Assembly: GCF_006345805.1 (NCBI RefSeq)
Contig: NW_021829899.1
Span: 1-46,889 of the forward strand
Origin: Octopus sinensis
Taxonomy: Eukaryota
Reading direction: 5' to 3'
Length of the DNA stretch: 46,889 nt
Part shown: positions 14,510 to 42,489 of the stretch, piece by piece
How the letters are laid out: every line of letters starts with the position of its first letter
How positions within the stretch are numbered: position 1 is the stretch's first letter
The notes under the pieces: generated by a model
The model's database searches: none
The model's input: the letters and a program-made list of their open reading frames with translations, nothing else
What the model was told of the DNA's origin: nothing
Position numbers and translations under genes: made by a program

Positions 14510-14554
<45 letters not shown>

Positions 14555-14556
<2 letters not shown>

Positions 14557-15939
14557 GGTGTTTACTATAAATTCCTTAGCAGTTCCAGTTGTTACTTATA
14601 GCTACAATGTGTTGAACTGGAATATGAGTGAAGTAAAGAATATAGATAGGAAAATACGCAAGCTGCTGAGTTGTAATAGGATGCACCACCCAAAGGAGAC
14701 GTAGATCGCCTTTACCTCCCCAGAGCCCAAGGAGGTCGAGGCCTGATCCAATTTGAACTAGCTTACAAAACAACCACAATTGGACTGGCCAAATATCTCG
14801 AAATATCGAATGACTGGATGCTAAAGCTCGTGAAAATCACGAGAGACGAAAGAAGCTTCATTCTATCTAAAGGAAAGCAAAAAATTTGCTATTGATCTCG
14901 TGCAGGATACCCAAACTGAACAACCCGAGGGAAGTACGGCAACTATTGTTGCAAAGAAGGTGAAAATGATGGCAACGAAAAAGCGCACGAGCAATTGGCT
15001 GATAGGTGGGAGGAGAAACCTCTACACGGCAAATATGTGACCCGCAGAAACAAGCTGATGTTGACCAGAAGCAAACCCATCAGTGGCTACGGAGCTCAGG
15101 GCTAAAAGCAAAGAGCGAAGGTTTTCATCCTGGCTGCTCAAGATCAAAGCCTATTAACCCGGAACTACCAGGCCAATGTGATGAAAAATGGAGCAGACCC
15201 AAAATGCCGATTCTGCAACGACATGATTGAAACAGTGGACCACCTAATCTCTGGATGTAAAGTCTAGCACCAGTGGAGTATAAATTAAGACATGACAGAG
15301 TTGGCCACTATCTACACTGGCTAATAAGTCGGCATTACAATATCAAAACTGCGACAAGTGGTATAATCACCACCCTGAGGCTGTAACTGAAGGAGAAAAT
15401 GTACCATTCTATGGGACTTTCCAGTACATACAGACCGAACCATCAAGGCCAATAAACCAGATATTGTTGTGAAAGACCAAAACAATAAAGTTTGCTTATT
15501 GATCGACATGAGCATCCCCTGCGATCATAATATCTCAGCGAGAAGAGTTTGACAAGCTCAGAAAAAATAAAGACCTACTCATTGAAATTGAGAAAATGTG
15601 GCATCTCAACGGGTTACAATACCAGTGATCGTAGGAGCACTAGGAATGATCAAGAAGGGGACCAAAATTATATGAGAATGATCCTGGCTTACCATCCCTG
15701 CAAGAAGTGCAAAAGATTGTCTTAACTGGTACATCGCACGTATTGAGAAGAGCATTGTCGATGTGATAACTGTTGCTGCTCATGTATTTAATTTAACTTA
15801 AAAAAAAAATTTTTTTTTAATGAACGAACTATTGAGTTTGGTTTAATGGCCTACCAATGTATACTATGAGTTTCTTTGCCCTAGGAGTCGGGAAGACTCT
15901 CGGAAAGAAATGGAAGCAAATTTGAAAGAAGAAAAAAAA

Positions 15940-15940
<1 letters not shown>
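14555..15940 (+). mobile_element. 5'-truncated R4/Dong-clade LINE: RT thumb, CCHC knuckle, restriction-like endonuclease, 3' UTR; frameshifted
   Basis: Across frames: INSLAVPVVTYSY, MHHPK..VDRLYLPR.QGGRGL, LAAQDQSL.TRNYQ, CRFCNDMIETVDHLISGC, RHDRV, ILWDFPVHTDRTIKANKPDIVVKD..CLLIDMSIP, PVIVGALG; stop at 15764-15766; (AAT)n on both sides. Confidence 0.93.
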
Positions 15941-16008
<68 letters not shown>

Positions 16009-26878: not shown

Positions 26879-27462
26879 CCTTTTCTACTCTAGGCACAAA
26901 GCCCGAAGTTTTTGTGGGAGGAGGTAAGTCGATTAGATCGACCCCAGTACGCAACTGGTACTTAATTTATTGACCCCGAAAAGATGAAAGGCAAAGTCGA
27001 CCTCAGCGGAATTTGAACTAAGAACATAAAGACAGACGAAATACCTATTTCTTTACTACTCAGAAGGGGCTAAACACAGCAAGGACAAAAAAGGACAGAC
27101 AAACGGGTTAAGTCGATTATATCAACCCCAGTGCGTAACTGGTACTTATTTAATCGACCACGAAAGGATGAAAGGCAAAGTTGACCTTGGCGGAATTTGA
27201 ACTCAGAACGTAGCGGAAGACGAAATACCTATTTCTTTACTGTACGCAAGGGGCTAAACACAGAAGGGACAAACAAGGACAAACAAACGGATTAAGTCGA
27301 TTATATCGACCCCAGTGCGTAACTGGTACTTATTGAATCGGCCCCTAAAGGATGAAAGGCAAAGTCGACATCGGCGGAAATTGAACTCAGAACGTAGCTG
27401 CAGACGAAATACCGCAAAGCATTTCGCCCGGCGTGCTAACGTTTCTGCCAGCTCGCTGCCTT
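26879..27462 (-). mobile_element. SINE family Y, internally trimeric copy
   Basis: Three ~180-bp units with GAAAGGATGAAAGGCAAAGTCGACC; head AAGGCAGCGAGCTGGCAGAAACG on the minus strand. Confidence 0.88.
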
Positions 27463-31420: not shown

Positions 31421-31460
<40 letters not shown>

Positions 31461-31465
<5 letters not shown>

Positions 31466-31932
31466 AAGGGTGAAAAGGAACACACGAGTTGATATATATG
31501 AAAAAACAAGTCAAAATAGAAAATGCTAAAATAATTTTATAAAGAACATTTCAGATACAGTAGGGATCACCACCATCCCCTGCCGGAGCCTCGTGGAGCT
31601 TTTTAGGTGTTTTCGCTCAATAAACACTCACAACGCCCGGTCTGGGAATCGAAACCGCGATCCTACGACCGCGAGTCCGCTGCCCTAACCACTGGGCCAT
31701 TGCGCCTCCAGTGGCCCAGTGGTTAGGCCCAGTGGTTAGGGCAGCGGACTAGCGGTCGTAGGATCGCGGTTTCGATTCCCAGACCGGGCGTTGTGAGTGT
31801 TTATTGAGCGAAAACACCTAAAAAGCTCCACGAGGCTCCGGCAGGGGATGGTGGTGATCCCTGCTGTATCTGAAATGTTCTTTATAAAATTATTTTAGCA
31901 TTTTCTATTTTGACTTGTTTTTTCATATATAT
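31461..31932. repeat. Fold-back inverted repeat (207-bp arms) of a SINE S1 head fused to an AT-rich tail
   Basis: Arms 31492-31698 and 31726-31932 with 2 mismatches by eye, 27-bp spacer, and 31 extra nt on the left arm only. Confidence 0.95.
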
Positions 31933-31974
31933 ATATATGATACAAACTTGGGGATAAAACCACTTTAATGATTT

Positions 31975-41004: not shown

Positions 41005-41403
41005 ATGCATATGTATATATGCTTGTAGCTGATGAATGATTACTATGCTGTAATTTCTCTCGTTTACTTGAACATAGTGCGAATTACCGTTATGAAGATG
41101 TGGAGCTATATTTCCAGGCAGTTGGGCACCCTCACACTTCTATAGAAATGTCAGAGCATATCTGACCCTGATTATGCCAATCATGTGGACAAGAGGCAGT
41201 ATAGCATTTCGTGTTCACCGGATCTCGTACCTTTAGAACTTTTTTCTATGGAAATGCTTAACAGATAAAATTTTGTGTACGAAAGAGGAAACTGAATGCG
41301 AAGAATATCGAGAATCTTTCTCTATGTTTGCGATTCCAATACTTCTTATATTATTTACACTATTTACATTTGATGGATATTTGTCCTCATCCTGTTTGTT
41401 GTT

Positions 41404-41449
41404 AACACAAAGTTTCGGCTGATTTACTCTCCAGCCTTCATCAGGTGTC
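41404..41449 (-). ncRNA. Minimal type I hammerhead motif (helix III palindrome mutated ACGT>ACTT)
   Basis: Minus strand GACAC-CTGATGA-A-GGCTG(GAGAGTAAAT)CAGCC-GAA-ACTT-T-GTGTT. Confidence 0.8.
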
Positions 41450-41521
41450 TGGGGGAAATTGTGAACATGGGTTCTCATTCCTAAGGTATTTTTCGATGTT
41501 GTTGTTGCTGTTGTTGTTGTC

Positions 41522-41578
<57 letters not shown>

Positions 41579-41585
41579 CAGGTCA

Positions 41586-41640
41586 AGTGGTTAAGAGCGA
41601 GGGCTACTAAACTCAAGATTCCGAGTTCCATTCCAGGCAG
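41586..41640 (+). promoter_or_regulatory. 5'-truncated tRNA-like (Arg-like) head with Pol III A/B-box remnants
   Basis: AGTGGTTAAGAGCG...CTACTAA...AAGATTCCGAGTTCCATTCC resembles tRNA D-arm, anticodon arm and T-arm. The B box has one mismatch. Confidence 0.7.
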
Positions 41641-41643
41641 TGA

Positions 41644-41756
<113 letters not shown>

Positions 41757-41823
41757 TAATAATAATAACAACAACATCGAAAAATATCTTAGGAATGAGA
41801 ACCCAGGTTCAAAATTTCCCCAA

Positions 41824-41869
41824 GATACCTGATGAAGGCTGGAGAGTATATCAGCGGAAACGTTGTGTT
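41824..41869 (+). ncRNA. Minimal type I hammerhead motif (one stem II mismatch)
   Basis: GATAC-CTGATGA-A-GGCTG(GAGAGTATAT)CAGCG-GAA-ACGT-T-GTGTT. Confidence 0.8.
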
Positions 41870-42489
41870 AACAACAAACAAGATAAGGGCAAATATCCGT
41901 CAAATGTAAATAATGTAAATAATGTACATAATTCGTCATCTCTTAAATATAGAACTGTGTCCAATACTTCTTGTTACCAAGATTATTTGAACAAGAAATC
42001 TCTTTAGCTTGAGAACAGCCGCTCATAAGAAAAAATCAAATTCAGTCTGTAGATGTTATCAAATTTTGAAAATGAAATGTATTTTTTTATAATCATTAAG
42101 TGGGTGGGCAGTTTTGCTGGGACACACTATACATACATACATACATACATACATACCACAACATACATACATACATACATACATACATACATACATACAT
42201 ACACACATACATACATATATACAAATATACATATATATATCTATATATATGTGTATGTATACACATACAGGTATATACATGTATTAACGTGATAATGTTA
42301 ACACTTAAAGCATTGCAACTAATTGGCTAGTTATTGTAGTATATACGCAAAAACACCTACACATCCACATATAAACTGTATACATGTGCAACAACAACGT
42401 ATATATGAGAAATCTTCATGTAACAGAATATCTTCCTCTGGCATGATTTTTATCAAATATCTTTTCGTCTCGCAGGTGTTGCGGTATAG

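Follow-up and report, generated by a model that had tools for sequence, protein, structure and literature searches.

The window, 46,889 nt in length, is a complete 46.9-kb unplaced contig of a 2.7-Gb assembly. It contains an inverted repeat with arms at 31492-31698 and 31726-31932, each 207 nt long, 99% complementary and separated by a 27-nt gap. The arms mismatch at 31561/31863 and 31673/31751, and each carries one private change relative to the common SINE sequence. A 13-nt duplication occupies 31713-31738, its second copy falling inside the right arm. The RNA fold of the palindrome has an energy of -415.9 kcal/mol (z -48.6), which none of 100 shuffles matched. Each arm consists of SINE sequence, one extra T and 63 nt of AT-rich sequence, the left arm being followed by a further 31 nt, and the insert is bounded on both sides by TA repeats. 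The near-perfect palindrome of the first-pass annotation, with its two mismatches, 27-nt spacer and 13-nt duplication, is thus borne out by inverted-repeat, duplication and folding analyses. The length of about 65 nt given there for the AT-rich segment is close, the exact figure being 63 nt plus the extra T before the SINE. The letters given at the SINE break-off were misread: the left arm has CCTACTGTA, not CCTGCTGTA. The usual continuation of the SINE holds in part, with CTCTTTCGCC in 2 of the 3 other printed copies of the window and CTCTTTCACC genome-wide (first 100 of 14,994 matches). The features are listed below by coordinates and strand.

31424..31460, unstranded: (TA)n microsatellite, left target side (AT array 31424-31466)
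31461..31491, minus: 31-nt tail of a Penelope-like element (PLE) and probable outer RT start (the 40 scored hits match at 100% and lead into TA/CA repeats)
31492..31554, minus: left-arm PLE segment of 63 nt, starting at the predicted hammerhead cut (family copies extend upstream into the hammerhead core)
31555..31555, minus: extra T at the junction (the common SINE has C there, the PLE has A)
31556..31710, minus: 155-nt 5' part of the S1 SINE (about 392 nt), tRNA-like, by sequence comparison; A and B boxes assigned by consensus, B box 31645-31656
31699..31725, unstranded: centre, with the SINE 5' end, a short microhomology join and copy 1 of the 13-nt stutter
31711..31868, plus: second SINE copy, 5' end rearranged, with the 13-nt duplication 31713-31738 and a B box at 31768-31779
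31839..31868, plus: 30-nt SINE hairpin (-13.5 kcal/mol alone), exactly the piece captured on C7
31869..31869, plus: extra T at the right junction
31870..31932, plus: right-arm PLE segment of 63 nt, extending from the predicted cut as far as the end without a tail, which is likely the inner RT start (arms of the family stop at +62 or +93)
31933..31939, unstranded: short TA remnant, right target side (crossed by X2 and X18 contigs)

The flanks of the palindrome do not mirror each other, and its arm ends coincide with the two fixed ends of the PLE family. The right junction is crossed by one contig each from runs X2 and X18, at a low depth of 36-43 and with only 22-24 letters within the element; these contigs fall below the 31-letter overlap threshold, and X2 is possibly the source sample. 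The check by spanning reads that had been proposed gives partial support, at the right junction in contigs of two studies; the centre is spanned by none of the 24 sequence pieces listed (of more than 124,000). No empty allele is present in the assembly; the left flank is single-copy and the right flank a repeat, and a target duplication is unreadable.

The AT-rich segment, called unrelated at first pass, is by sequence comparison the 3' end of a PLE with RT and GIY-YIG genes. A genome search with 31461-31560 gave 1182 candidates, of which 40 were scored, each 100% identical over the first 94 nt, and a 19-nt anchor has 473 matches. At 30 fetched loci the segment adjoins TA or CA repeats, and one conserved sequence lies upstream of it in 27 of 29 fetched loci (window excluded). 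Arms of the family end at +93, the tail, or at +62. An RT gene upstream of the terminal repeat is represented by a 639-aa frame in L042 (RVT_1, E 3.7e-6, 27.2 bits, just below the cut-off of 29.6) that has no PDB match, and an endonuclease of the GIY-YIG type at the C-terminus, with two Cys between its motifs, by a frame in L039 (25 bits, cut-off 22.6). The genome search and the two frames relate the segment to a PLE and show that it is not unique sequence. In this family a CxxxxCxxC motif precedes GIY-YIG; the available part of PMC8557442 gives CX2-5CxxC as a feature of the Neptune/Nematis clade.

Among the hallmarks of endonuclease-positive PLEs, a 31-nt tail at one end, an inverted truncated copy and a TA/CA microsatellite target are present; tails of 30-40 nt are described for PLEs in the portions available of PMC8557442 and PMC11167929. 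Copies reading on past the tail, the tandem pLTR form, gave no hits, TA or CA following the tail in 39 of 39 rows. The geometry is shared with PLE insertions, as had been proposed, and the tailed and tail-less arms match those of the family. Because an inverted truncated second copy with a one-sided tail is already a known PLE architecture (PMC8557442, in the part available), the shape of the palindrome is ordinary; the novelty resides in the junction, not in the two-armed shape. A two-armed insertion of another hammerhead family lies at 41347-41926 of the window; it contains tracts of (TTA)n/(AAT)n, has a short palindromic centre resembling a tRNA near 41578-41648, and is likely the family A of the first-pass annotation.

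Just upstream of the segment, the PLE family bears a minimal hammerhead of type I, in which U3-A8, a helix II of 4 bp, a palindromic helix III and a GUA site are recognisable. The features of this class were found throughout the motif: the core (U3 U G A N A8 A, GAAA, UH), helices I and II, and palindromic III. The identical motif occurs in 36 of 80 fetched arms, and folding two copies as a dimer closes and extends helix III; U3-A8 cores and dimer dependence of minimal hammerheads are described in the accessible text of PMC4209133. The core itself is not within the insert, and Rfam gave no hammerhead among the 150 matches listed of 280. The junction is GUA^C, exactly the predicted cut, and everything upstream of the cut is replaced by SINE. 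Family copies run upstream of 31461-31556 into the hammerhead core, which confirms the proposal that this stretch normally lies just downstream of a hammerhead cut in a PLE end. Capture of a SINE RNA piece at a PLE end, also proposed, is upheld by the junction and the family comparison. The same SINE-T-PLE joint is found on C7, where the SINE piece is reduced to its final 30 nt, a tail is present and the flanks are unrelated (3 rows, 2 loci). That the PLE hammerhead cut in vivo, a step common to ligation and to a template jump, is very probable. The LINE-like sequence at 14513-15977 of the window is 93% identical to sequence beside the C7 joint, likely a common-repeat coincidence.

Breakpoints were listed as exact-anchor copies with a base differing from the family at chosen places and were sorted by eye; the patterns lose copies with any anchor change, so that older subfamilies are missed. 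The 34 rows at the cut were reduced by 14 point mutants to 20, representing 17 events (8 foreign, 7 own sequence and 2 TA target). At -1, setting aside 26 point mutants, together with 8 copies deleted across a direct repeat, reduced 42 rows to 8 events, and these may be cut-site breaks ending in A. There were 4 events, none foreign, in 21 rows at +1, and 2 events in 14 rows at -2. The excess at the cut has a p of 0.004 against +1 (17 vs 4) and 0.0004 against -2 (17 vs 2). The same test on a second hammerhead family gave 22 rows and 4 breaks, with U6 or SINE at the cut in none. A second U6 case, at C10824, was rejected, as the U6-like pattern row proved to be the element's own sequence.

Thirteen foreign-partner loci were read. 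U6 stands at the cut in 6 rows from 5 loci (L287, L288, L289, L290, L292), always with exactly five T and nothing added, where the pattern allowed 0-5 free bases; U6 identity was scored at L056 (Rfam, 56.1 bits). Mature U6 has five U with a cyclic phosphate at its end, according to the available part of PMC6789731. L289 and L290 are 360 kb apart with unrelated flanks, and their rearranged centre is identical but, relative to the tail, oppositely oriented; as they share this centre and private letters, the safe count is 4 independent U6 events. Five T were found in 14 of 61 other dispersed U6 copies, a contrast with the 5 cut loci of p 0.001; the 61 comparison places comprise 57 taken from the first 100 of 171 listed and 5 loci fetched earlier, with L187 left out. 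In most dispersed U6 copies a SINE 5' end follows after a few extra bases (41/62 by motif). Those at L114-L118 and L166-L222 are mostly fused to SINE 5' ends from several families, L170 combines U6, an S1 fragment and a SINE in one three-part insert, and tandem U6 copies spaced by about 1.1 and 1.4 kb at G000:C1:141.83-141.96 Mb (L119-L143) are likely a U6 gene cluster.

At three loci the joint runs from cut to cut, the 5' product of another hammerhead family, ending at its own GUC site, being followed by the 3' product of this PLE. The 5' product belongs to family B in L068 (G000:C7:116499670-116499765) and L224 (C27:18836268), joined without microhomology, and to family C in L060 (C6:21666133-21666304), with a 1-nt ambiguity; two of these chimeras are palindromes with the joint in both arms. 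The other partners are an S1 SINE piece plus T (2 loci, the window and C7), a different SINE plus T (L076), a stretch from inside another element (L054) and 14 unassigned nt (L084). At 8 of the 13 loci the partner terminates at a position for which a cyclic phosphate is either known, as in U6, or predicted, as in hammerhead products; the SINE stands outside these 8, and tRNA-CCA, 5S, poly(A) and full-length SINE are absent among the 13. Cross-ligation by the ribozyme and trans-cleavage of the SINE were considered and rejected, as by eye helix I fails to pair across families.

Foreign joins in the S1 SINE follow GT in about 4 cases, GTA in 4-5 and GTAC in 4; a preferred end after GTA was discarded, as neighbouring positions break as often. 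Immediately 5' of the break is a local hairpin, which in the full SINE competes with other folds (pair probabilities of about 0.3-0.4 for other partners). A SINE variant with a 1-nt deletion, represented by about 10 of 22 rows, would create microhomology of 2 nt and could so account for the extra T, but it is a rare variant against at least 14,994 copies. The joint is seamless for U6 and hammerhead partners and not for the SINE, with its extra T; a cyclic-phosphate end likewise fits U6 and hammerhead partners, the SINE piece being without a defined end. A tRNA scan returned none. The SINE-PLE unit is unamplified, its junction occurring at 2 loci and this centre once; a composite SINE/MITE family was rejected for want of many copies, and two other head-to-head S1 pairs are without PLE ends. 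Other SINE arrangements recorded are full-length S1 SINEs head-to-head without PLE ends in L258 (G000:C2:203798230), an S1 cut after GTA and fused to another SINE in L283, and 184-nt SINE-like units in tandem (2.7 copies) at 26925-27413 of the window.

Among 33 two-armed copies the tail-less arm is longer by at least 10 nt in 10, within 9 nt in 12 and shorter in 11, in a biased sample for which the script missed short pieces in L071 and L083. Each arm of L083 and L223 holds family sequence absent from the other, and for that reason both arms must have been copied from RNA, which agrees with the extension of both strands by PAc; the argument is proof against flipping. Recombination between arms can flip a centre, and L289/L290 suggest that flips occur; a longer tail-less arm, as in L287, L290 and L063, is accordingly no proof of a joined RNA, since flips can mimic it. 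In L063 (G000:C6:60545050-60545262), where the tail-less arm is the longer, a 31-nt ribozyme core, from U3 to the cut, is missing in both arms, for which re-ligated RNA, a structure-guided jump and a flipped centre are three alternatives. All 6 two-armed cases with a foreign partner (window, L060, L068, L084, L287, L289/290) have it in each of their arms, as against 1 of 6 for breaks at the cut that continue in own sequence (p 0.008, groups picked by eye). Partners in both arms fit a covalently joined RNA that was copied twice. For the window itself fold-back is possible, because the right arm adds nothing beyond one ambiguous G.

With moderate confidence, we interpret the palindrome as a two-armed PLE insertion in (TA)n, for which the ribozyme cut the PLE RNA, a host ligase, likely RtcB, joined a SINE fragment to it and the joined RNA was copied twice. 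Hammerhead cleavage would yield a 3' product of 94 nt or more with a 5'-OH, and this end would be ligated to an RNA that bears a terminal 2',3'-cyclic phosphate; in the present case that RNA would be a trimmed SINE, to which a U had perhaps been added. The PLE protein would then cut both (TA)n strands, one cDNA starting at the tail (+93) and one at +62, and close to the SINE 5' end microhomology would unite the 3' ends of the two cDNAs, leaving a 13-nt stutter. More generally, and only tentatively, PLE hammerheads in the germline may provide a fixed 5'-OH acceptor to which RtcB joins any cyclic-phosphate RNA (U6, ribozyme products, SINE fragments), with copying twice by the PLE enzyme giving a palindrome.

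A template jump at this locus is a possible but less probable course of events: on reaching the 5' end of the cut RNA, the PLE RT would have run off, appended an A without a template and continued from the 3' end of a truncated SINE RNA; fold-back or a repeat jump would account for the second arm. The extra T, present at both SINE junctions and also in L076 and L083, fits a non-templated A, and the S1 SINE has no cyclic-phosphate end known here and no favoured end. Jump-like joints are seen in L083 and L223, where the second cDNA goes from the cut to the stop of the first; truncated S1 pieces, like U6, are often fused to the 5' ends of other SINEs genome-wide, and the second hammerhead family, with neither U6 nor SINE at its cut, points the same way. 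The centre of the palindrome is open to a reading as successive rounds of self-priming at microhomologies of 2-3 nt, self-priming is suggested for PLE palindromes in the available part of PMC3846280, and an engineered R2 RT apparently captures RNAs with 3' or cyclic phosphates (PMC12140624, in the part available). Against a jump stand the seamless five-T U6 joints and the cut-to-cut joints, the lack among the foreign loci of the tRNA-CCA, 5S, poly(A) and full-length SINE ends named above, and the fact that in 0 of 6 cases is the foreign partner confined to one of two arms; pure fold-back, moreover, is unable to make L083 and L223. Of the original proposal of an RT template switch with fold-back, the capture of SINE RNA at a PLE end is retained and fold-back is weakened by these two loci; as between switch and ligation, the family's other partners favour ligation.

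Compatible with either ligation or a jump, but unlikely, is a shared chimeric source of SINE head and PLE end that was transcribed and re-copied, by which the window and C7 would represent one event, a stillborn composite SINE. The two have an identical junction and the same PLE subfamily letters, L289/L290 resemble two copies of one U6 chimera with unrelated flanks, and inserted ends may be re-usable, as all tail ends seen lead into TA/CA repeats. However, only 2 loci (3 rows) speak for such a source, which is silent on the origin of the first junction, and Pol III would likely terminate short of the RT starts, at T runs of 4, 4, 4 and 6 that follow the cut. A library or assembly fold-back artefact, or an inverted duplication at the DNA level, is very improbable. 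The window being a whole small unplaced contig, with a centre spanned by no listed read or contig and no empty allele in the assembly, would suit an artefact, but the unmirrored flanks, arm ends at the family's two fixed ends, a private change per arm, recurrence of the junction on C7 and the right junction in contigs of two studies all speak against it.

If the preferred course of cleavage, ligation and copying is correct, the palindrome is a dead-end retrocopy, and no function is shown for it. Outward Pol III transcripts of the two arms would both be SINE-sense and not mutually pairing, and a long hairpin RNA would need read-through transcription. The roles suggested at first pass, as ADAR substrate with editing, as cruciform and as working divergent Pol III promoters, are unsupported. 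The value of this single locus is as a mechanism marker. The junctions are a DNA record bearing on PLE hammerhead cutting in cells and on the formation of inverted ends, named as open in the accessible text of PMC8557442, and as exact RNA joints are named they are searchable in existing transcriptomes. If true, a ribozyme and a ligase would provide a route for head swaps between retroelement families and for placing Pol III promoters onto PLE ends, and PLE inverted ends would be two cDNAs rather than a fold-back.

The listings of the literature searches showed no paper on chimeras at PLE hammerhead cuts; the comparisons that follow draw on the portions available of each paper. Endonuclease-positive PLE units (Craig et al. 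2021, PMC8557442; Arkhipova et al. 2013, PMC3846280) share the inverted 5'-truncated copy, a 30-40 nt tail, a microsatellite target, a hammerhead in the terminal repeat and captured sequence between repeats. In contrast to those units, both arms here end at the ribozyme site and are continued by foreign RNA, and no tandem read-through copy was found. Poseidon PAc of Anolis (Frangieh et al. 2024, PMC11167929) shares two RT starts bounding the tail, from which both strands are cut and extended, an AT-rich target and an upstream hammerhead. There, cleavage is unnecessary in vitro and public RNA-seq has no reads starting or ending at the PAc cut, whereas here DNA copies pile up at the cut, with a U3-A8 core and CxxxxCxxC before GIY-YIG.

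U6/LINE-1 chimeras made by RtcB (Moldovan et al. 2019, PMC6789731) and Alu/LINE-1 chimeras (PMC11838501), for which ligation and switching are both left possible, likewise have a Pol III RNA in sense joined to the 5' end of a retroelement 3' fragment, the U6 with its mature oligo-U. Here, unlike in the U6/LINE-1 chimeras, the acceptor end is set by a predicted ribozyme and not by an unidentified nuclease, the carrier is a PLE, the insert is two-armed in TA repeats without poly(A), and the SINE is 3'-truncated with an extra T. PLE minimal hammerheads (Cervera and De la Pena 2014, PMC4209133), of low activity in vitro, and non-LTR retrozymes (PMC7229834; 10.64898/2026.07.22.740005) share the type I core, U3-A8 covariation and a palindromic helix III needing a dimer. 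RtcB ligates hammerhead products in vitro far better than self-ligation does (PMC7229834). In retrozymes the monomer is closed on itself by ligation, whereas here distinct RNAs would be joined.
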